NCBI RefSeq assembly: GCF_003991155.1
Contig: NZ_CP031293.1
Source: Escherichia coli
GTDB lineage: Bacteria > Pseudomonadota > Gammaproteobacteria > Enterobacterales > Enterobacteriaceae
Length of the DNA stretch: 64,000 bases
Reading direction: 5' to 3' (one strand)
The notes beneath the pieces were generated by a model, which was not told the DNA's origin, ran no database searches, and saw only the letters and a program-made list of their open reading frames with translations. Of the stretch, positions 13,183 through 60,479 are shown piece by piece (the first letter of the stretch is position 1; each line of letters begins with the position of its first letter). Made by a program: the position numbers and the translations under genes.

Positions 13183-13266
13183 TTAATTTCGATTATTTTT
13201 CCCGGATGGAAAATTCTTAGAAACCGATCACATACAGCTGCATTTATTAAGGTTATCATCCGTTTC

Positions 13267-13353
13267 GCTGAAAAACATAACCCATAAAATGCTAGCTGTA
13301 CCAGGAACCACCTCCTTAGCCTGTGTAATCTCCCTTACACGGGCTTATTTTTT
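13267..13353 (+). ncRNA. cyaR: CyaR (RyeE) Hfq-dependent sRNA
   Basis: GCTGAAAAACATAACCCATAAAATGCTAGCTGTACCAGGAACCACCTCCTTAGCCTGTGTAATCTCCCTTACACGGGCTTATTTTTT matches the CyaR sequence as I remember it, including the terminator hairpin and U-run. It has the expected position after yegQ. Confidence 0.85.
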
Positions 13354-27905: not shown

Positions 27906-28706
27906 TCACCACCAGGCGTGGAAGTGGTGAACCGGACCAATACCGTGACCAACTTCCAGCGTGTCGGCCTGGGCTAACGCCGATGAAAGCCAGCTTTTTG
28001 CCTCCTGTACGGTGTCAGCCCAGTTTGTATGGCGCGGGCGCAGTGCAGCCAACGCCGCAGAGAGCGTACAACCAGTGCCGTGAGTGTTTTTGGTCATAAT
28101 GCGCGGTGCGGTAAACCGTTGTTCACCCTCGCGGGTAAACAGCCAGTCCGGGCTTTGCTCATCATCCAGATGACCACCTTTCATTAGCACTGCGCCACAG
28201 CCCATCGCCAACAGCGATCGCCCTTGTTCCAGCATTTCCTGTTCGGTGCGCGCGTGTGGCGCGTCGAGCAAGGCGGCTGCTTCGGGCAAGTTTGGCGTTA
28301 TTAATGAAACATGTGGCAATAATCGACTGCGTAGCGTGGCAACTGCCGAAGGTGAAAGCAGCGGGTCGCCGCTTTTTGCCAGCATAACGGTGTCGAGTAC
28401 CACGTTTTGGATCTGATAACGTTGCAACCGTTCTGCCACCGCTTCAACAATATCGGTTTCCGCCAACATACCGATTTTAGTGGTGTCGATTCGCACATCA
28501 CTGAACACCGAATCGAGCTGGGCGGCGACAAAATCAGGCTCAATGCGATACACCGACTGTACGCCACGGGTATTTTGCGCCACCAGTGCAGTAATCACTG
28601 AGCAACCATAAGCGCCAAGTGCCGAGAAGGTTTTAAGATCGGCCTGAATCCCCGCACCACCACTCGGATCAGTACCGGCAATCGTCAGAGCGTTAATTCG
28701 TTTCAT
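27906..28706 (-). CDS. thiD: ThiD hydroxymethylpyrimidine/phosphomethylpyrimidine kinase (266 aa)
   Basis: MKRINALTIAGTDPSGGAGIQADLKTFSALGAYG is the canonical ThiD N-terminus. Confidence 0.96.
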   Translation of the reverse strand: MKRINALTIAGTDPSGGAGIQADLKTFSALGAYGCSVITALVAQNTRGVQSVYRIEPDFVAAQLDSVFSDVRIDTTKIGMLAETDIVEAVAERLQRYQIQNVVLDTVMLAKSGDPLLSPSAVATLRSRLLPHVSLITPNLPEAAALLDAPHARTEQEMLEQGRSLLAMGCGAVLMKGGHLDDEQSPDWLFTREGEQRFTAPRIMTKNTHGTGCTLSAALAALRPRHTNWADTVQEAKSWLSSALAQADTLEVGHGIGPVHHFHAWW

Positions 28707-28729
28707 GCCTGCACCTCCTGCGTCAATTG

Positions 28730-29491
28730 TCAGAGCGCATCAAGGAAATGTGGAACAAAACTGCCTGGCCCCTCGCTTCTGGCAACTGCGCGTTCTCCGG
28801 CTTGTTTCATCCAGTGACAGGCAGATGCGATATTTTCCAGCGTATCGCCTGGTAGCGCACAACAGGCAGCGACAACCGCCGATAATGCACAGCCAGTTCC
28901 TACCACTTTGGTCATTAGCGGATCGCCACCGTGAATGCCAACGATACGATGTCCATCGGTAACATAATCCACCTCGCCAGTGACCACGACGATTGCGCCA
29001 GTTTCCCGTGCCAGTGTTTGTGCAGCAGGTATCGCGTTAGCTGCGGCATCAGTGGTATCCACTCCCCGTCCGCCATTAGCAACGCCAGCTAATGCCATGA
29101 TTTCCGAAGCATTACCACGTATGGCGGTTGGCTTATGAGACAGAAGTTCCAGACAAAAACGGCGGCGATAATCGAGTGCACCCACCGCTACTGGATCAAG
29201 CGTCCAGGGTGTTTGAGAGCGTTTTGCCTGTTCAACGGCGGCACGCATCGCCTGTGCGCGTGGCTGCGTCAGCGTGCCAACGTTAATCAGCAACGCACTG
29301 GCGATTGCCGCAAACTGACTGGCCTCTTCGGTTTCGATGACCATCGCTGGCGATGCACCGAGCGCCAGTAAGGTATTGGCAGTAAAGGTTTGCACCACAT
29401 CATTGGTCATACAGTGCACAAGGGGGGAATGTTTGTGAAAAAGATGTAACGCGTGCGCAGATTGCGCGGAACTCAGCAGGTCGACTTGCAT
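28730..29491 (-). CDS. thiM: ThiM hydroxyethylthiazole kinase (253 aa; ends at an in-frame TGA 27 nt before the thiD-overlapping stop)
   Basis: [39 protein letters not shown]... The riboswitch lies directly upstream. Confidence 0.93.
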
Positions 29492-29625
29492 AGTTTGCTC
29501 CTGCCATAACGTGAAGAAGCAATGACCTGGTGGTCCGTGACTTCCCTACGCTGGCATTATCCAGATCAGGTGATACGGGTATTTCTCAGCCTTCACGCAG
29601 AAGGGCACCCCGAGTCGTTTGGTTG
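29492..29625 (-). promoter_or_regulatory. thiM TPP (thi-box) riboswitch: aptamer plus SD-sequestering expression platform
   Basis: The minus strand reads ..AACCAAACGACUCGGGGUGCCCUUCUGCGUGAAGGCUGAGAAAUACCCGUAUCACCUGAUCUGGAUAAUGCCAGCGUAGGGAAGUCACGGACCACCAGGUCAUUGCUUCUUCACGUUAUGGCAGGAGCAAACUAUG. This is the well-studied E. coli thiM riboswitch sequence. Confidence 0.93.
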
Positions 29626-29837
29626 AATCTCTATATTTTGTGCCAGCTTAGGGGAAGTGGCTTGCAGATGCAAGCTCGCCTCCATTAATTGCTTCTTCTC
29701 TGTGTACCCCATTTTGTACCCCATATCAGAAATGAAAAAGAAACATTTAACATCTATCATTCAGATGATAAAAACTATTGATTATCTTAATTTGCTAATT
29801 TATATTATTTATCTAAATTTGATAGGTGAGATAAAAA

Positions 29838-30077
29838 ATGACAGAAACCCAGATCTACGAGAACATTAAGCAAGCCATTAGCAGCGCACCACGAAATAGC
29901 CAAACGATGGAAATGCACCTCCAGATGATCAAATATGCTGACCATCTGAAAAAGGTTACGGCAAAAGAGTTTTGTGAAGGTGTAGGACTTAAAGCCAGCT
30001 TTGGTACAGAGTTCAGCAAAATGAGAAATCTTACCGAGCGACTCAAAGCTGCTGGACTTGACACCACGAAGTTATAA
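29838..30077 (+). CDS. Hypothetical small protein (79 aa), island-borne
   Basis: ORF preceded by an AT-rich promoter-like region and GGTGAGATAAAAAATG. No family recognised. Confidence 0.5.
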   Translation: MTETQIYENIKQAISSAPRNSQTMEMHLQMIKYADHLKKVTAKEFCEGVGLKASFGTEFSKMRNLTERLKAAGLDTTKL

Positions 30078-30242
30078 AAAACAAATCATCAATATATTAT
30101 TTTTGTTTTCCAGACTTACTTGCATATGTTTCTACGAGCATAAAAAACAACAACCACCACATAGCTATTACCATAATAATGTTTTCCTTTTATATTAAAC
30201 AGAGAAATAGAATTAGAGCGTGGAATAGATGAATTCTATTTT

Positions 30243-30488
30243 CTATAACTTCTTGAGGTTGAATGTAGAAAAAGACAGCTCTTTCATTTCAATAACACCG
30301 AAATTTGATAGCTGTTTCAGCCAGAATTTTAAACCTGACTCAGAGCAACCTGCTCGATGTAACACATCGCTATATTTTAGCGGTGTTGGCTTTCCTTTAT
30401 AGAGGTAAACAAGCGTTTCGTAGGTGTGTTTTCCGGTGTCGTTACACTGAATGCGGTCTACTTGATTTTTTACTAAATATTGGATCAT
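30243..30488 (-). CDS. Hypothetical small protein, possible winged-helix DNA-binding protein (81 aa)
   Basis: ORF starts 12 nt downstream of the stop of the 239-aa gene, with an AGGAGGA RBS. wHTH-like segment (YSDVLHRAGCSESGLKFWLKQLSNFGVI). Confidence 0.5.
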   Translation of the reverse strand: MIQYLVKNQVDRIQCNDTGKHTYETLVYLYKGKPTPLKYSDVLHRAGCSESGLKFWLKQLSNFGVIEMKELSFSTFNLKKL

Positions 30489-30499
30489 AGTCCTCCTTA

Positions 30500-31219
30500 T
30501 TAAAATGGAATGTCAAAATCGTCCTCTTCTGTCTCAGGTATCGTGTATATATGTTCTCTTCCTGTAAATTCAGAAACCACTATTGAAATTAGCCTGTATG
30601 CCTCTATTTTATCGCCCTGCGTTTCAGCTAAAGCCCACTCAAGGGCTGCTTCTGTTGGCTGTCCATTCGGTTTGCAAATAGTGACACCGCCCCAAGGAAG
30701 CTCTGTTTTTTCCTGCTGAATAGAGCGTGTTGTTTCTAGTGTTTTTTTATCTTCCGTAGGGGGAAGCTGTTCAGGAACAGCTTTAACAGTAGATACTTGC
30801 TCTGTCTGTGGCTTTTCTGCATTTACAGAGGCTTTCGCTTCTCTTGGTGCTGTAATATGTGCATCTGTAAAGGGTAATGCTTTATAGAGTGATGTTTGAC
30901 CGTGGCGTGCCTCTACAGAAAGAACTCCCATATCAACAAACATATTTATAATATTGCGTACCTGACGATCACTAACCATTCCAATATTAGCTAATGTTTT
31001 TTGAGTAGCGTAACATTCTTGCCCTTGTTCATTGAATCCAGCTATATAGCTATAGATTTCAACGGCTGGCAGTGTAGCGGTGTATTCATTACCAGATGGT
31101 GAGTACCATTTTTTAAACATCTTCAACCATTGCTCAACAACTACATATTTTTGTTTACCATCTTTCTGATTTAGACATTTGGCTTTCGCTTCGGCAATTG
31201 TTTTGATATTTTTGATCAT
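30500..31219 (-). CDS. wHTH replication-initiator-like protein with a Pro/Glu/Lys/Thr-rich (likely disordered) linker and an SSB-tip-like C-terminus (239 aa)
   Basis: HTH segment ATQKTLANIGMVSDRQVRNIINMFVDMGVL, typical of phage/plasmid O/DnaD-like N-terminal wHTH proteins. The C-terminus is ...ETEEDDFDIPF. Confidence 0.6.
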   Translation of the reverse strand: MIKNIKTIAEAKAKCLNQKDGKQKYVVVEQWLKMFKKWYSPSGNEYTATLPAVEIYSYIAGFNEQGQECYATQKTLANIGMVSDRQVRNIINMFVDMGVLSVEARHGQTSLYKALPFTDAHITAPREAKASVNAEKPQTEQVSTVKAVPEQLPPTEDKKTLETTRSIQQEKTELPWGGVTICKPNGQPTEAALEWALAETQGDKIEAYRLISIVVSEFTGREHIYTIPETEEDDFDIPF

Positions 31220-31343
31220 TTAGTTCCTCCTTTGTAAGGACTGTAATTAGTAGTTCATTAACAAGTTTTGGAATTGATTTCCCTTCTGCCTTTGCGCGAT
31301 TTAACAACGCGTTATAAGTTGCAGAGTCAAAATTAATATTCAT
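31155..31343 (-). CDS. Ribbon-helix-helix (Arc/CopG-like) small protein (62 aa)
   Basis: MNINFDSATYNALLNRAKAEGKSIPKLVNELL is an RHH-like pattern. GGAGAGGAGAA RBS lies 7 nt upstream of ATG 31343. The 3' end overlaps the next gene by 65 nt, so the exact extent is uncertain. Confidence 0.5.
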   Translation of the reverse strand: MNINFDSATYNALLNRAKAEGKSIPKLVNELLITVLTKEELNDQKYQNNCRSESQMSKSERW

Positions 31344-31365
31344 TTGGTTTTCTCCTCTCCTGTTA

Positions 31366-31548
31366 TTATTCTTTCTCTGCTTCTGCCTTACGCAGTTCAT
31401 CAATAATCTTGAGTGCATCGTCAAAGCATTTTTCACGCTCTGGATAACCTCGACTCCTTGCCATATTACGATTCATTACTACTTGATGTCGTGTTAACTC
31501 ACCTTTTTTAAATGCCTCTACGACGTGTTCCGGTATAAACCATTTCAT
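31366..31548 (-). CDS. Hypothetical small protein (60 aa), first gene of the leftward island operon
   Basis: AAGGAG RBS 7 nt upstream. Candidate promoter TTGACA-N17-AATAAT on the minus strand at 31687-31659. Confidence 0.5.
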   Translation of the reverse strand: MKWFIPEHVVEAFKKGELTRHQVVMNRNMARSRGYPEREKCFDDALKIIDELRKAEAEKE

Positions 31549-33312
31549 AAAAAACTCCTTATTCAGTTAAAAGAAAAACACCTTGCAAGCCTGACGGCTT
31601 CAAAGTGCATTGATTTTGATTATTTAGAGAAGAATGTTTTTCTGTCCCTCTAGTACCTATTATTACATATAAATAAACATTTGTCAATATCTTTTCATAA
31701 AAAATCAGAACCTTTTCATGCACTTACATTTTTTCTTAGCGATTCGTGCTCTCCTGTGTAGTGCTATTCTTCATTACCAGCTAAAACGCTCTAAAACGCG
31801 TTCTAACGAAGTTTTGATAAAAGCAATACATTCTCTTATGTAATGGCTGTTTAGCTCGCCAGAGGCTTATTTAAGTGGCTTATTTTGTATTTGTTAGATG
31901 ATGATAGATATAAAACAGAGAGTTCTTAGATTAGTTACTTTATAAAACGCTCTGTAAAGCCCTGTAGTGAGTTTATATATGTAGGCAAAGCGGTTTCCAT
32001 TCTCTACCCTGCTTAATGCTGTTAGAGAAGCATTTAGACCCCTTATTTTTAATTACCTAAAGTATCCTCTATACATCTCTGTTATGAAACACCTCTGAAT
32101 CCTTCATAAAACACATTATGACGCAAAGAACACTTTTCTAAGGTGATTCCCTTCCTGAACTCTGTTTCTTGCGTCAGAGAGCTACACAGAGAGCTTATAA
32201 AGCTATTATTAATAATAAAGTAGATAAAGTAAGTAAGATAAGTAAGAAGATTAACTAAGATAGATAAGATTAATAAGATCAGAATTCTCTTTCGGTGTCG
32301 CCTCTGGCTTTTCCACCGAAAACAATTACACGACTACAGAATGTAGGAAGTGAAATTGTATTGAGGCTTAGTGAAATTACACGAGGAAAGCAGAGTGTAA
32401 TTGAGCTTTAGCCGCTCTCTCTTCGAGTAATTACACAACTACAGAGAATAACAGAGTTATTAAATGTAGGAGGGTAATTAAGAGTTAGAGAGAGTTAACA
32501 CGTAAGCAATCAGATGATTGGTTAGGTGATTACTCTTACTGCGCACAGCGCAATAGTATTCCTTCGTGGGCGTTACCGCCAACGATAGTTACACGAAGAA
32601 AGTAACGCTTTGCTTTCGGTGTGAGCGGAACGGGCCAGCCACAAAGCCCGAAAGGTAGCGGAGTAAGGCTGCTTGCCAGAGAGTGGAGCTAACGCCGGAA
32701 GGCAAAAGATCATATATATAGTATAAAGAATATTATTTAATTATAGTATTGGTGGAACTCATTACCTAAGGTAAACCGGAGACCACTTCCAACGGTTAGG
32801 CAACCACTTCCAATTGTGTTATTTCCCCTTTTACCCTAAGTAAATTTTAGCCTTTCGTTACATCCATTTATCACATAGCACTTACCCTGTGTAAATCATA
32901 GAATAATGCTCTCTATTCCCTGTGTAATTCCATACTAAAAAATTCAATGAAAAGTAGTTTAAAAGTGCAATGTTAGCTTTCTTCACTTTTACATCACTTT
33001 CGCTGCGCCTTGTGTAATGCGGCTTACAGAGCACTATCAGAAATTATTGATCAAAAATCAACCTATTATTTGTCGAACAAGTTTTCTTTAATGCAACAAA
33101 AATTATTTTTTCAAAATAAACACACAATTTAATAGCTTGCTAATTTTACCAAAATGTAACTACATGATTCTCATGCAAGAAGTGTAGTGATAAGGCAGGC
33201 TAAATCACCACACTAAAAAACTTCGAATTTCGTAGTGAAAAAAGTACTTTACACACCTAATCAACACGCCCAATAATCACTACACACAAATCAATACAGA
33301 AGAAAAAAGAAG
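31549..33312. other. 1.76-kb ORF-free, motif-dense region: candidate replication origin and/or structured ncRNA locus
   Basis: No ORF of 60 aa or more in any frame. ATTACAC/GTGTAAT heptamers occur in both orientations (32325, 32376, 32430 / 32395, 32922, 33012, and variant 32889). There is a C-poor TAAG-rich tract (32211-32280), a GC-richer hairpin-rich core (about 32520-32700) and a pure AT stretch (32711-32750). Confidence 0.5.
33182..33213. promoter_or_regulatory. Candidate recombinase binding (res-like) site: GTGTAGTGAT-N12-ATCACCACAC
   Basis: 10-bp inverted half-sites (1 mismatch) lie 100 bp upstream of the serine recombinase gene. Further half-site copies are at 33230 (+) and 33276 (-). 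Confidence 0.4.
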
Positions 33313-33864
33313 ATGGCTAATATTGGATACATTAGGGTATCGACTGTGCAACAAAACACAGACCGTCAATTAGCAGGAGTAACTCTTGATAAAGTCTTTG
33401 AAGATAAAGCGTCAGGCAAGAACACTCAGCGCCCACAGTTTGAGGCAATGATGAACTATGTGCGGGAGGGTGACGTGTTACACGTCCATAGTATTGATCG
33501 CCTTTGTCGTAATACAGCCGACCTTCTGGCAACTGTAGAGCAATTAACAAAGCGCGGCGTGTCTGTGCATTTCCATAAAGAAGACTTTAAGACAGGAAAG
33601 AACTCTCCCGCAGGGAATATGATGCTCACAGTTCTTGCAGCAGTGGCACAAATGGAACGTGAAATGATGCTTGAGCGTCAACGTGAAGGGATCGCCGCAG
33701 CCAAGGCCGCTGGACGTATAGCAAAACGTGGTAATGGAAAAGCAATTGATCGAGCGGGAATTGCTGCCGCTCTCGCGAATGGTGGCTCAATTCGGAGCGT
33801 AGCAAAAGATTTCAGTGTCAGCACGCAGACGGTGCAACGTATCAAGAAAGAGCAGGTGGCGTAA
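33313..33864 (+). CDS. Small serine recombinase (resolvase/invertase family, 183 aa)
   Basis: MANIGYIRVSTVQQNTDRQ catalytic-Ser motif, the D..HVHSIDRL.R motif, and a C-terminal HTH (SIRSVAKDFSVSTQTVQRI). Confidence 0.88.
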   Translation: MANIGYIRVSTVQQNTDRQLAGVTLDKVFEDKASGKNTQRPQFEAMMNYVREGDVLHVHSIDRLCRNTADLLATVEQLTKRGVSVHFHKEDFKTGKNSPAGNMMLTVLAAVAQMEREMMLERQREGIAAAKAAGRIAKRGNGKAIDRAGIAAALANGGSIRSVAKDFSVSTQTVQRIKKEQVA

Positions 33865-34030
33865 TGCCTCCTTGATATTTGACAGGGACGGTCGGCAAAA
33901 ATCGGGGCTTGCTGATCTCAGCGTTGAGCGGTTCTTGCAATGGTGCCTAGGTGCTCGCTTGTATTCCCCTTCGATAATCACCACTAAGCCACTTATTGCC
34001 TTGTGGAGTGGCCCGAAAATTACTGATATC

Positions 34031-34495
34031 TTATTGATTCAGTCGATCCCATTTAACCGCAGATACAATTCCCCAATTACCACTAGCATTAGGCCTACGC
34101 CACTTCGCGGTTTCCATTCCACGAAGGTATTCGAGAGCTTCATTGAACGAACTGAAACGTTTCTGGGCTGATTTTTCCCCTACTCTAAACGAACCATCGC
34201 GAGTACTTGCCAATCCTGGATGAAAACACGACCCATCTGCAGCATAAGGAACAAGTACCTCCTGATCATCAGGTTTCCTTGAATCAGAAGCCAGTAACTG
34301 CCAAGGCTCAATACGCAAAGCGTCAGCCAGAACCTCAATTGCATCAAGAGATGCATTAGAGCAACCACGCTCAATTCGACTCATATAACTACGTGCAAAA
34401 CCACACCGATCTGCAAAGGCCTCTTGGCTTAAGCCAATAGCTATACGGAACTCTTTTACTCGTTGTCCAAAAAGGTATCTCAGATTCTTTCGCAT
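34031..34495 (-). CDS. XRE-family HTH regulator with an uncharacterised C-terminal domain (154 aa from MRKNL)
   Basis: HTH_3 pattern (LFGQRVKEFRIAIGLSQEAFADRCGFARSYMSRIERGCSNASLDAIEVLADAL), then about 85 aa with no recognised family. Confidence 0.75.
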   Translation of the reverse strand: MRKNLRYLFGQRVKEFRIAIGLSQEAFADRCGFARSYMSRIERGCSNASLDAIEVLADALRIEPWQLLASDSRKPDDQEVLVPYAADGSCFHPGLASTRDGSFRVGEKSAQKRFSSFNEALEYLRGMETAKWRRPNASGNWGIVSAVKWDRLNQ

Positions 34496-34605
34496 GGCAC
34501 AAAGATGCAATTTGACGCACCAATTAACCACGCACTAATCGTGACATTTTGAATCAATCATGTATTATTAGCATCACCATCCATTTGACACACCAAGGGA
34601 GACAA

Positions 34606-34953
34606 ATGAAAAAACTAGTATTTGCCGCTTTGTTAATTCCAGTGATGGGCCACGCCACAACCTTTTCCTGTAAAGCAATACAGGAAGGTCATATTGACTC
34701 GGGAAGTCAGAAAGTTTCTGTAGATTCAACTTTTGATATACAAGATAAAAAAATGACCATAAATCTTGGCGGTAAAACTTGGAGACTTGATTTGGTAGGT
34801 CAAAAAAGCATCGCAAAGATGTATGCTACACCTGACGGAGGGGTTGCAGCCACATACATTGACAATGGCAGTATACCGATATTTGTATTACGCCCTTCTA
34901 ATCCCGATGGGGAGATGGCTGTTTACACATTGAGTATGTGTTCTGAAGTATGA
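34606..34953 (+). CDS. Small secreted protein of unknown function (115 aa)
   Basis: Signal peptide MKKLVFAALLIPVMGHA/TT, AAGGGAG RBS, and a terminator directly downstream. Confidence 0.6.
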   Translation: MKKLVFAALLIPVMGHATTFSCKAIQEGHIDSGSQKVSVDSTFDIQDKKMTINLGGKTWRLDLVGQKSIAKMYATPDGGVAATYIDNGSIPIFVLRPSNPDGEMAVYTLSMCSEV

Positions 34954-34959
34954 TTGATC

Positions 34960-34983
34960 GGCGTGATATTCACGCCGTTTTTG
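34960..34983 (+). terminator. Rho-independent terminator
   Basis: GGCGTGA-TAT-TCACGCC followed by GTTTTT. Confidence 0.7.
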
Positions 34984-35030
34984 GGGAAATTTGTATATTG
35001 AAAAATATAGAAATAGAACTTTTATCAAGC

Positions 35031-35756
35031 CTATTTATTAACAGGTAGTAATGTCAGATCGCCATAATGGGCTTGTCTATGGCAATTAGGACATAATGCA
35101 ATAGCATTTTCCACAGAGTCCTCCCCCCCCTTTGAAAGCCACTCAATATGATGAACTTCTAGAAATGGAGTACCATCTTCCTTTAGAAAAGGAGCATCTC
35201 GCTTACAATATTGACATTTTCCATTTGCACTCAAAAGAACTTCAGCAACTACATATGGGCTTCGTTTATAAACTCGTGTTGTTACTTCGATTAGTTCCGG
35301 GATTTTACTTTCTGTCGCTAAAATTTGCTTTCGTTCCACTGAAGATAATTTTGCAGCCGTCTCAACAGCTTCTTCGAAAACCGATTTTACTTGACGATAA
35401 CGCCACATCCCTTCTAAATCCTGGTATAATTCCCAAATACCGTGCACAGATGGTTGATAGATTTCAAAAATATTTCCACGCTTGAACAATCGGTCATACT
35501 TATGATGCCGATGAGTTACATCATCAGTTCGTCGGGCAGTTTTGTTGAAACTCCAGTAGCTCCGCTTACAATTAACTGTATTAGCAATTAAATTGAGCCA
35601 AGTATTATCTTTATAAGATGGAAATAGCTTTCTAAGATAATCATCTACCTGCTTAGCCGTTGCAGCCCCACCAAACTGATTAGCAATTATCTGTATGGTA
35701 ATAGCTCTTATCGGTTGATCGCCATACTTGTATTTTTTGCCTAAATTTTTAACCAT
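35031..35756 (-). CDS. HNH nuclease with a roughly 160-aa uncharacterised N-terminal domain (241 aa); candidate type IV-like restriction/defence nuclease
   Basis: C-terminal HNH: CQYC...FLEVHHIEWLSKGGEDSVENAIALCPNCHRQAH (McrA-like beta-beta-alpha-Me with CxxC...CxxC). The N-terminal region is not recognisable. Confidence 0.75.
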   Translation of the reverse strand: MVKNLGKKYKYGDQPIRAITIQIIANQFGGAATAKQVDDYLRKLFPSYKDNTWLNLIANTVNCKRSYWSFNKTARRTDDVTHRHHKYDRLFKRGNIFEIYQPSVHGIWELYQDLEGMWRYRQVKSVFEEAVETAAKLSSVERKQILATESKIPELIEVTTRVYKRSPYVVAEVLLSANGKCQYCKRDAPFLKEDGTPFLEVHHIEWLSKGGEDSVENAIALCPNCHRQAHYGDLTLLPVNK

Positions 35757-35884
35757 AGAAGACTCACTAAGCCTAAATTCATCTTAAGTTATTATTGTAA
35801 ATTAGTTGTGAAAATTTTTGATCTCAGACAATAAAAATCTACAAATTATTAGCTGGTTATACACTAAGAAGGATACACGAATAA

Positions 35885-37192
35885 CTAAGTCTCCCAACAA
35901 AGACCATCGATCACATAACAAACGGTGGAAAGTGGGAATGTGTGCAGATAACGCTGGGTAATCCCTACTCCACTCTTTTCATGACCTACCACCTGTTGCA
36001 GATGCGCCAAATTACTCACCCAACCAGCTAAACAAGTAGAAATCATAGTATGCCGGAAACTATGCACCAAGCGCCGCTGCCCATAATCATCAAGATAAGG
36101 AATATCAAGCTGATCACGAACATCTGAAAGAACTTTACCTATCTTTGACATATTTCGACCTGAGACTTCCGAAAAGATTTTCTCTTTCCATTGGCGGTTA
36201 ACAAAATCCAGAAACCCCCACTCAATCAGTTTGGGATGAATCACTACCTGTCTTGTAGCATTCTCAGTTTTACCCAGCCTTCTTTCCGCGATCAGAAGAT
36301 AGTGCCGCTGGCTATCTTCATCAAATTTGATCTGCGACTTCTCCAGTTTAGCAATCTCACCTCTTCTGGCTCCTGTGTACGCCAACAACAAAGTGATCCA
36401 CTTCTGCCATCCATCAGGCTGCTTTAGTGCCCATCCTACAAATTTTTTCATTTCTGCTGCACTGTATGCACCAAACCTAGCTTTGGATGGTGCCGCTACT
36501 ATTCCATCAGTCGGAGACTTAGATAGAATATCTTTGTTTTCAGTCAGAAATGTTTTGAATAACGATTTGTAGATTTTAAGGTGCTTATGTACAGCCTCAG
36601 CACCAACTAAATCCTCTGGCAGCACATCATCACATTCGATTAGTTGCTGAATAGTCATTGACCTATACGGTTGCACTACACGCTTTGGTAAGTTTTCGAC
36701 AGTTTCCATTACTCGCTTAATATCTTGTTTGGTGATTGCCGTTACGTCTGTTTCTTTTCCCAAGACAACAAGCAATACCTCCATATAACGCTCATTTGCC
36801 ATTGAGATCGATTTTGTCCAATTTCGACCTCTTTCCTCCTTGTACATAGCCCACGCATCAGCAAGTGTTAGCACCTTTTCCGGTTTGGCTGGTGGTTGAA
36901 GCTGCAAAACTTCTTTAGAAATATTGTTCAATTGCTGAGGGAGTGGCAACGGAATCATTACGTTACGTGACGAAGCGATCAAGTTTGAAACAAACTTATT
37001 AAATTGTGGCAACGGAGTAGCGAGTGATTTAACGAAAGGAATGTGCGGAGTAAGGCCAATCATCAACGCCGATGCTTCGCGATAACTGTCAGTAAAAAGT
37101 GATTTTTTGTATATCCGACCATCCGAAAGCCGGATTTGTAGATAGTAATTACCGTTTCGCTGAAATGTGTATGGGAGAGTTCTTGACCTCAT
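35885..37192 (-). CDS. Tyrosine recombinase / phage-type integrase (435 aa from MRSRTLPYTF)
   Basis: Catalytic region ...TGARRGEI...HSFRHT...GHEKSGVGITQRYLH (R-H-R-Y). AGGGGG RBS before ATG 37192. Adjacent to the right att repeat. Confidence 0.9.
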   Translation of the reverse strand: MRSRTLPYTFQRNGNYYLQIRLSDGRIYKKSLFTDSYREASALMIGLTPHIPFVKSLATPLPQFNKFVSNLIASSRNVMIPLPLPQQLNNISKEVLQLQPPAKPEKVLTLADAWAMYKEERGRNWTKSISMANERYMEVLLVVLGKETDVTAITKQDIKRVMETVENLPKRVVQPYRSMTIQQLIECDDVLPEDLVGAEAVHKHLKIYKSLFKTFLTENKDILSKSPTDGIVAAPSKARFGAYSAAEMKKFVGWALKQPDGWQKWITLLLAYTGARRGEIAKLEKSQIKFDEDSQRHYLLIAERRLGKTENATRQVVIHPKLIEWGFLDFVNRQWKEKIFSEVSGRNMSKIGKVLSDVRDQLDIPYLDDYGQRRLVHSFRHTMISTCLAGWVSNLAHLQQVVGHEKSGVGITQRYLHTFPLSTVCYVIDGLCWET

Positions 37193-37275
37193 AAACGCCC
37201 CCTTTTTGTACCTTAACAGCATGATTTATGGTCAAAAAGAGATACAACCACATAATTTTCAAGACTATTTTGGCC

Positions 37276-37357
37276 CCCTACGCTGGCATTATCCAGATCA
37301 GGTGATACGGGTATTTCTCAGCCTTCACGCAGAAGGGCACCCCGAGTCGTTTGGTTG
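37276..37357 (-). promoter_or_regulatory. Second (orphan) copy of the thiM TPP aptamer, on the native promoter side of the island
   Basis: 100% identical to 29544-29625. It lacks the ..AAGUCACGG.. continuation and the expression platform, and is followed 83 nt later by the integrase start codon. Confidence 0.85.
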
Positions 37358-37445
37358 CGATGATAAATCGCAAAGGAGGATGGTAATGTCCAGCGCACGC
37401 GTTGTAAACGAGGAAAAACGGCAGTTTTACAATCGCGTTAATAAA

Positions 37446-37765: not shown

Positions 37766-37800
37766 CTACTGGGGGGTAGTATCAGGTACTGGGGGGGAGT
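37766..37800. promoter_or_regulatory. RcnR operator: two TACT-G6/7-N-AGTA sites
   Basis: TACTGGGGGGTAGTA (37766-37780) and TACTGGGGGGGAGTA (37786-37800) in the rcnR-rcnA divergent intergenic region. They match the published G-tract operator architecture. Confidence 0.85.
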
Positions 37801-37838
37801 AGAATCAGATTGCCGAATTAATACTAAGAATTATTATC

Positions 37839-60396: not shown

Positions 60397-60479
60397 GTTG
60401 GAACACGATGTTGCACAGGCTGCGGCGTTGGGCCTGAAAATAGTAAATAAAAGAACCTGCCTCACCAGCAGGTTTTTTT
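60397..60479 (+). ncRNA. orzO: Orz-type antitoxin sRNA (about 83 nt)
   Basis: Consensus promoter upstream. Terminator AACCTGC-CTCACCA-GCAGGTT plus T7 at 60454-60479. The 5' 20 nt (GTTGGAACACGATGTTGCAC) repeat the plus-strand sequence at 60231-60250 with 1 mismatch, so they are complementary to the toxin 5' UTR. Confidence 0.72.

Follow-up and report, generated by a model that had tools for sequence, protein, structure and literature searches.

The stretch of Escherichia coli chromosome analyzed here (64 kb of contig NZ_CP031293.1, referred to below as the window) has the gene order yegX-thiD-thiM ... rcnR-rcnA, and the aptamer of the thiM thiamine pyrophosphate (TPP) riboswitch occurs in it twice. 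A repeat search of the window revealed an 82-nucleotide (nt) direct repeat, whose two copies (29544-29625 and 37276-37357) are 100% identical and correspond to the TPP aptamer minus the 3' strand of its closing helix, P1. The 7,650 base pairs (bp) between the copies (29626-37275) have a GC content of 34-45%, against ~50-55% in the flanks. An integrase of the PF00589 family at one end, repeats of the target sequence, an empty site in K-12, and use of the same target across genera were all found for this segment, which is an integrative island of 7.65 kb; its attR junction is the 253-nt region 37193-37445, in front of the integrase gene (int). The features on which the argument depends are as follows.

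27906..29491, minus strand: thiM (29491-28730) and thiD (28706-27906), from open reading frames (ORFs), comparison with the K-12 translations, and the annotation of an identical locus
29492..29543, minus strand: native P1 3' strand and the thiM expression platform, which sequesters the Shine-Dalgarno (SD) sequence; identical to K-12
29544..29625, minus strand: thiM-proximal TPP aptamer (copy 1), the attL-side repeat; exact repeat and RF00059 match of 71.2 bits
29645..29675, minus strand: candidate island-borne promoter of the thiM type, TTGCAT-N17-TAAGCT (29673-29645), overlapping the palindrome GCTTGCATCTGCAAGC (29675-29660)
29703..29722, minus strand: two GGGGTACA direct repeats, candidate arm-type integrase sites by their sequence
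29838..30077, plus strand: gene for a small HTH_73 protein at the left end of the island, divergent from the outward promoter (PF24718, 9.9e-31)
35885..37192, minus strand: int, a tyrosine integrase of 435 aa (Pfam PF00589, 29.5 bits; phrog_1 integrase, 1.2e-26; 538 homologues)
37193..37275, minus strand: right end of the island and int leader, a diverged type A version without the GGCCGAAATTCGGCC hairpin of its relatives, from the comparison of right ends and the consensus fold
37200..37241, minus strand: predicted helix CUCUUUUUGACC / GGUACAAAAAGGG sequestering the int SD, from the minimum free energy (MFE) fold; kept in 13 of 13 type A leaders
37276..37357, minus strand: int-proximal TPP aptamer (copy 2), the attR-side repeat, with the P1 5' strand and P2-P5; exact repeat, RF00059 match of 61.3 bits, and K-12 alignment
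37380..37408, minus strand: native thiM promoter, with the -35 hexamer TTTACA at 37408-37403, a 17-nt spacer, and the -10 hexamer TACCAT at 37385-37380; scan score 9/12

Both copies scored above the gathering score of the Rfam TPP model (RF00059; 54.3 bits), with copy 1 matching at 29622-29526 (minus strand) and copy 2 at 37354-37259 (minus strand, E = 1.4e-09). When the uninterrupted K-12 site was aligned with the window, the insertion was found to be clean: the rcnR-side flank runs into copy 2, and copy 1 continues into AAGTCACGG, the platform, and thiM. Copy 1 and its platform form a complete riboswitch, which is identical to K-12 from the aptamer through the thiM AUG. Copy 2 ends with ..GCGTAGGG, is followed by the island sequence GGCCAAAATAGTC, and lacks both the P1 3' strand and the SD-sequestering platform. 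In the covariance-model alignment, copy 2 has GGCCA where the native 3' strand reads AAGUC, two of the five P1 pairs are non-canonical, and the closing helix of the three-way junction is not formed. Of 5,426 complete E. coli genomes, 80 carry the same island (coverage of at least 80%) and most do not, and both riboswitch copies are annotated by the Prokaryotic Genome Annotation Pipeline (PGAP); therefore, the arrangement in the window is not an artefact.

The first-pass annotation of this DNA had described much of this junction. It had stated that copy 2 lacks its native continuation (the P1 3' strand and the start of the platform) and that the riboswitch-thiM-thiD unit now has island DNA upstream, and the K-12 alignment agrees on both points. 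The int ATG, which it had placed at 37192, 83 nt past the repeat, coincides with the PGAP call in an identical island and with the start of the homologues. The promoter scan and the K-12 alignment also bear out its statement that the native thiM promoter and an aptamer without a platform precede int on the same strand; it had named the hexamers of this promoter correctly (TTTACA-N17-TACCAT), but they lie at 37408-37380 and not at about 37395-37367.

Proposed transcription of thiMD from the far end of the island

Sorting the sequences that precede every aptamer copy gave native promoters and a few types of island left end, two of which are termed L1 and L2. Read toward thiM, an L1 left end, the type found in the window, consists of two or three GGGGTACA repeats, the palindrome GCTTGC-N4-GCAAGC, and the motif TTGCnn-N17-TAA(G/T)CT. 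In every L1 variant, this motif ends 28-29 nt ahead of the aptamer, and all L1-type ends contain GGGGTACA / GAGGTACA in two or three copies. This spacing is constant across other genera and across E. coli lineages that are just 72-87% identical in this region, and the architecture resembles the native thiM promoters (TTGCTT-N17-TAtnCT) of Pantoea, Atlantibacter, Dryocola, and others. The L2 left ends contain TTGAGT-N17-CATGAT or TTTACA-N17-TACTAT (9/12), the latter being a near-copy of the native promoter of E. coli (TTTACA-N17-TACCAT) and Pseudenterobacter. Because L2 was found in both Erwiniaceae and Enterobacteriaceae, and always on the thiM side of the island, we consider that it travels with the element. 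The HTH_73 protein encoded beside the left end is 92-94% identical in islands of other genera. Thus, every island of the family has a positionally conserved thiM-type promoter, a leader, and the full 5' portion of the aptamer at its far end, and the first-pass description of thiMD as left behind island DNA is too simple. The island-side candidate named in that annotation, TTGCAT-N17-TAAGCT, is favored by these comparative data, although its position is 29673-29645, not 29674-29646.

Natural deletions of the native promoter bear on the same question. The native promoter segment was found in 5,024 of the 5,426 E. coli genomes, and the 88 bp between rcnR and the aptamer that contain it are missing in ~400; the left end of the island (query 29626-29840) is present in 557. 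In O157:H7, int, copy 2, and the native promoter have been lost, and the left end, the riboswitch, and thiMD have been kept. Compared with the window, the last 80 nt before the aptamer are identical at 76 of 80 positions in the O157:H7 remnant and the sequence further upstream at 139 of 166; one GGGGTACA repeat is deleted there, and the promoter hexamers are intact. In BL21(DE3) (NZ_CP053602.1, 2084300-2089000; our loci L057/L058), a related left end abuts the riboswitch, and only the island remnant lies upstream of thiMD. A deletion with IS1 at its boundary has removed int and the second aptamer together with the native thiM promoter; it also covers rcnR, rcnA, and rcnB and extends through the yeh fimbrial genes as far as a yehE-like gene, which is truncated. 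ThiD is required for the de novo synthesis of thiamine, and both BL21(DE3) and O157:H7 grow without added thiamine. From these deletions, the requirement for thiD, and growth without added thiamine, we infer that the hexamers at the island end act as the working promoter of thiMD. The dependence of thiMD on an island promoter had been proposed in the first-pass annotation, and the conserved left ends and the two deletions make the case for this presumed activity stronger than was stated there.

Two further observations concern the left end. The query 29626-29840, which covers the HTH_73 gene region, also matches eight places on E. coli plasmids, i.e., this module is not confined to thiM. The remnant in O157:H7 strain SS17 (locus L003, 11993-14267) is ~2.2 kb long and comprises the HTH_73 gene and two unrelated small genes, one of which is annotated as an outer membrane protein.

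We consider it probable that the element is a defense island that targets a riboswitch and restores its target from two sides, as a variant of the islands that target RNA genes. In the mechanism that we propose, the tyrosine integrase of the island would use the aptamer DNA of the thiM TPP riboswitch as its attachment site, and because this target is a leader and not a free-standing RNA gene, integration would cut the promoter from thiMD. At the int end, the island would keep the aptamer to ..GCGTAGGG, and the promoter, leader, and truncated aptamer of the host would come to lie 83 nt before int. At the far end, it would bring the candidate arm-type repeats, a palindromic operator-like site, the thiM-type promoter TTGCAT-N17-TAAGCT, a leader, and the 5' aptamer portion, and the fusion of these parts to the P1 3' strand and platform of the host would rebuild a complete riboswitch before thiMD. 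At the sequence level, the island does supply a leader, a 5' aptamer portion, and a promoter-like element.

Mosaic aptamers show the contributions of the island and the host. Four E. coli genomes whose islands are of the canonical type A have an int-proximal aptamer that is wholly of the E. coli type. In their thiM-proximal aptamer, the leader is that of the island (CAATCTTCAT), P3 is foreign, and the sequence after P3 is again of the E. coli type. Three foreign P3 alleles were found in these four genomes (TTCTTTGTGAA, CATCAATGATG, and TTCTACGTGAA), and PGAP still annotates the chimeric thiM-proximal copies as TPP riboswitches. Since the foreign P3 lies in the thiM-proximal copies, island-borne sequence is part of the riboswitch that controls thiMD. 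In Rahnella and in a Serratia metagenome-assembled genome (MAG), the 5' part of the int-proximal copy is divergent and is taken to be of the host type, and two Pantoea loci with different island types share an int-proximal signature, GAGAAAAACCCG, that occurs in no other locus. Based on these two cases, the 5' part of the int-proximal copy appears to be derived from the host.

The sequences place the crossover within the aptamer; the precise point may vary between subtypes, or gene conversion may have blurred it. The canonical type A islands of E. coli imply a switch 3' of P3, and the foreign P3 of locus L064 would imply one 5' of P3. Two fixed positions were considered and rejected. A crossover at the 3' end of the aptamer, suggested by the Serratia- and Pantoea-type int-proximal copies and by the type B inverted repeat GCCAG-CGTAGTC-CTGGC, does not fit all loci, and neither does one at the 5' end, suggested by the island leader joined to an E. 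coli P3 in BL21.

Several observations weigh against a two-sided restoration of the riboswitch. The A' island L064 has its foreign P3 on the int side, whereas the canonical type A islands have it on the thiM side, and the two aptamer copies are identical (homogenised) in many loci, the window included. The L1 promoter is weak by consensus (6-7/12) and falls below the threshold of the promoter scan, and the conservation of the 75 nt beside attL could reflect recombination sites instead of a promoter. No excisionase was identified in the island. Lastly, thiM in the window has a premature stop at codon 254 (28730-28732), where K-12 reads ...FLDALWQLTQEVQA and the window ...FLDAL*; nine residues are lost, and the stop lies 27 nt off the thiD start, which it normally overlaps. 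In an otherwise identical island locus (NZ_CP029747), thiM is full-length. Because of this premature stop, selection on thiM may be relaxed in the strain of the window.

Two other accounts of thiMD transcription were weighed. A minor but appreciable chance attaches to the reading that thiMD is transcribed here not from the left-end promoter but chiefly by read-through from a strong internal island promoter at 31687-31659, via the operon of a replication-initiator-like (rep-like) gene. This promoter (TTGACA-N17-AATAAT) matches consensus at 11/12 positions with a TG extension, lies on the thiM strand, and is followed by no predicted terminator on that strand down to thiM. However, the convergent HTH_73 gene (29838-30077, plus strand) lies in between, and the left-end hexamers are positionally conserved in all lineages. 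In O157:H7, the remnant corresponds to no more than the first ~890 bp of the island and thus lacks the internal promoter, yet the riboswitch, thiM, and thiD of this lineage are annotated as intact.

It is improbable that the insertion merely disables or weakens thiMD, with the loss tolerated since the gut supplies thiamine and with the left end conserved only for the arm sites of attP. The weakness of the left-end -10 hexamer and the nonsense codon of thiM in the window would fit such a loss, and the GGGGTACA repeats and the palindrome would suit recombination or regulatory sites, but the O157:H7 remnant keeps the hexamers and the leader though int is gone and one GGGGTACA repeat is deleted. 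The near-copy of the native promoter in the L2 ends also argues against it, as do the need for thiD and the growth of BL21(DE3) and O157:H7 noted above. Furthermore, the islands hold a complete and structurally valid 5' aptamer portion, including compensated P3 variants, which is needed only for a working riboswitch.

The int leader and the truncated aptamer

In the published numbering of the thiM leader from its transcription start, the ribosome-binding site (RBS) includes G142 and the AUG begins at U152, and in vitro transcription was initiated with CUGC (Bastet et al., PMC5499598). When we counted from the C of CUGCG in K-12, we arrived exactly at U152 and at a G at 142 within GGAG. Position +1 of thiM therefore corresponds to 37373 in the window, which is 6 nt past TACCAT and 16 nt ahead of the 82-nt repeat. 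Consequently, the int end of the island now follows the thiM promoter, the 16-nt start of the leader, which is a small hairpin, and the aptamer as far as GUAGGG. No terminator was predicted on the same strand between the native thiM promoter and int, and the scan of the 83-nt right end detected no sigma-70 promoter belonging to int itself; by eye, only TTGACC-N19-TACAAA was seen. Read-through from the native thiM promoter into int is plausible as judged from the sequence, especially in the window, in which the post-aptamer hairpin described below is missing.

Three elements were found in the consensus fold of 13 int leaders of type A: a post-aptamer hairpin, GGCCGAAAUUCGGCC, which is supported by three G-C to A-U compensations and is missing in the window; a helix over the SD, CUCUUUUUGUC / GACAAAAAGGG; and a pairing of UCAUG with the start codon. 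All three consist entirely of island sequence, and the two masking helices have no partner in the aptamer in this consensus. The UCAUG/CAUGR pairing over the int AUG is kept alongside the SD helix in 13 of 13, and CUCUUUUUG forms an arm within the fold. No conserved pairing between the aptamer and the int SD or RBS was found in this consensus fold, and the MFE folds of the int leader and the native thiM leader had z-scores of -0.5, 0.0, and -0.9, which are indistinguishable from those of shuffled sequences. Judging from the predicted structures, we infer that int translation is held down by the SD- and AUG-masking fold of its own leader and not by TPP.

The first-pass annotation had raised the possibility that int expression and element stability are coupled to thiamine. 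If this were so, the aptamer between a thiM-type promoter and int would be a working TPP sensor, i.e., a borrowed riboswitch that reads a host metabolite for a mobile element. The aptamer would follow the host promoter when the island is integrated and the promoter of the island itself in a circular form, and the thiamine status would gate integrase synthesis, hence integration or excision. In the MFE fold of the window sequence, AGUC 9 nt past the repeat pairs with GACU of the P1 5' strand and was considered as a substitute P1 strand, but it was rejected because it is absent from all other type A right ends, which have UUGGCCUAC or UCGGCCUAC in its place; the match in the window appears to be due to chance or specific to its lineage. 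The data thus did not favor the proposal, with no conserved substitute for P1 and no conserved pairing between the aptamer and the RBS. It is very improbable that TPP binding to the orphan copy 2 alters int expression, so that excision or stability tracks thiamine: although copy 2 retains a TPP-aptamer score of 61.3 bits, would lie in the 5' untranslated region of int if the thiM promoter is used, and is retained to GCGTAG beside int in all island types despite unrelated right ends beyond it, the int-proximal copy is mutated where int has decayed (loci L023, L053, and L054), and relatives behind rnpB share the same geometry without any ligand sensor.

The integrase family and the cargo of the island

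The 538 homologues of the integrase are 64-84% identical across Enterobacterales, and ~30 loci from ~18 genera were fetched. In nearly all of them, a TPP aptamer ends ~85 nt upstream of int on the same strand, and in every locus that was long enough, a second aptamer and then thiM followed (aptamer-int-cargo-aptamer-thiM). Some integrase of this family is present in 224 of the E. coli genomes. The islands also form tandem arrays: two integrases lie 13.5 kb apart on one contig of Enterobacter nematophilus, and several int-proximal aptamers are preceded by the left end of another island. Tandem islands of different subtypes with an aptamer copy between each were seen in NZ_JAPKNE010000002.1 (loci L020 and L009) and also in L007, L011, L013, L028, and L033.

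Of 16 scanned loci with distant integrases (~30% identity) from marine Gammaproteobacteria, 14 have the integrase gene 51-61 nt downstream of rnpB and in the same orientation (rnpB-linked loci L034-L050, e.g., L035:9566-9915 and L040:13140-13342). One of the rnpB loci has a partial rnpB repeat 3.2 kb further on, and essentially no tRNA genes were found beside these distant integrases. From the sequence arrangement, rnpB looks like an attachment site of this clade. Given these relatives behind rnpB, the geometry of a structured RNA, a short spacer, and int appears to have been inherited from a clade that targets RNA genes. In the family studied here, the target is an element of an mRNA leader rather than a stand-alone RNA gene, rnpB being the apparent target only in the distant relatives.

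The remaining genes and segments of the island are as follows.

35031..35756, minus strand: cargo gene in the variable slot beside int, encoding an HNH endonuclease that resembles type IV methyl-directed restriction enzymes (PF01844, 1.2e-12; PADLOC mREase_IV, 1.9e-23)
34031..34495, minus strand: helix-turn-helix (HTH) regulator of the cI/Cro type (HTH_31/HTH_3; PHROG repressor families)
33313..33864, plus strand: small serine recombinase, DNA invertase-like (PF00239, 1.1e-38; phrog_125 DNA invertase, 2.2e-61)
31550..33310, no strand assigned: ORF-less segment of 1.7 kb (no ORF of at least 60 aa), with ATTACAC-type repeats on both strands and AT-rich (AAGTAAGAT)n tracts
30500..31219, minus strand: replication-initiator-like protein with HTH_36, O-like or DnaD-like (Pfam and PHROG matches)

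According to the RefSeq product names, the slot beside int is occupied in other islands by DUF262/GmrSD, SIR2, TIR and NACHT, DUF1837 and helicase, or AIPR genes, i.e., variable anti-phage cargo is found at a fixed position. Of the traits of phage satellites, an integrase, a cI-like HTH protein, and a rep-like protein are present, and no capsid, terS, or packaging family was detected; several small ORFs had no match. A search of the phage collection yielded no phage or satellite record with the island itself, only short fragments of its rep gene. Within the rep-like gene region, 30752-31124 and 31191-31356 are 97-100% identical to short segments of the virulent Escherichia phages inny, muut, Mt1B1_P17, and PaulScherrer (~146-151 kb), which hints at a recent exchange between phage and island or at interference. 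Hundreds of E. coli genomes contain the ORF-less segment 31550-33310 elsewhere in the chromosome, with 87-92% conservation and beside a small serine recombinase gene. As a known RNA, it gave only sub-threshold noise in Rfam, and our guess is that it is a replication origin.

Outside the island, two copies of TACTGGGGGG(T/G)AGTA, 20 nt apart, lie at 37767-37801 between rcnR and rcnA and match the G-tract operator sites of RcnR, an ordinary feature. Elsewhere in the window, Rfam identified the small RNA CyaR and the antitoxin RNA OrzO-P at 13265-13350 and 60404-60479 (100.7 / 102.8 bits), as expected in E. coli.

Comparison with known systems

Our full-text literature searches, whose coverage is incomplete, so that an earlier description is possible, turned up no account in which thiM or a TPP riboswitch serves as an attachment site; the sole trace was a supplementary table row, 'rcnR-thiM', which is discussed below. 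The closest model for the regulatory part is the K-12 riboswitch itself. In E. coli, the thiM TPP riboswitch (RF00059) controls translation by SD sequestration and linked Rho-dependent termination (PMC5499598). Copy 1 of the window together with 29492-29543 is identical to the riboswitch and platform of K-12. In contrast, its promoter and leader are derived from the island, as is P3 in some E. coli genomes, and copy 2 differs from the K-12 riboswitch in missing the P1 3' strand and the platform. In about a tenth of sequenced E. coli, including BL21(DE3) and the O157:H7 lineage, the control region of thiMD is partly or wholly island-derived, and this matters wherever the thiM riboswitch or promoter of K-12 serves as a model or a part. 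For the evolution of riboswitches, it means that parts such as P3 can be replaced horizontally by the copies that mobile elements carry.

In control of the ICEclc type, int is driven across attP by a promoter located at the opposite end of the element, and solely in the excised circle. The island is similar in that its candidate left-end promoter and aptamer would face int across attP in a circular form, and a different promoter, that of the host thiM, faces int once the island is integrated. Unlike in that system, both promoters are of the thiM type.

In a survey of defense islands in E. coli, a region termed 'rcnR-thiM' (7,956 bp, 8 genes, RM_type_IV) was listed for E. coli 789 (PMC10121019, supplementary file 4), with the mobile-element type 'None' and no numbered hotspot. 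As in the defense hotspots of E. coli, the slot on the int side holds type IV restriction, GmrSD, SIR2, TIR-NACHT, or DUF1837-helicase genes; in contrast to the account in PMC10121019, we describe here a riboswitch target, an integrase, and a promoter swap. The rcnR-thiM region is thus a new site of defense cargo, which had been recorded earlier without assignment to a mobile element.

Finally, islands and prophages of the Islander type integrate in tRNA or tmRNA genes and restore the split gene (PMC4383910), and there is a report of a phage that integrated into ffs, which encodes the 4.5S RNA (PMC12540744). As in the tRNA and tmRNA islands, a tyrosine integrase adjoins a structured-RNA target and is co-oriented with it, attL and attR are repeats of the target, the element brings target sequence so that function would survive, and tandem arrays occur at one site. 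Unlike in those islands, the target is a cis-regulatory aptamer located within the leader of an mRNA, integration parts a promoter from its operon, and restoration would be two-sided, with the far end giving the promoter, the leader, and the 5' aptamer portion; what remains beside int is a truncated aptamer without a downstream gene of its own. If this reading is correct, a riboswitch aptamer would join tRNA, tmRNA, and other stand-alone RNA genes on the list of integrase targets, and bringing a promoter, a leader, and a half-aptamer mimic would be a way for an element to target a leader without killing its operon. The integrase is also a candidate engineering tool, with an attB that is conserved across Enterobacterales.

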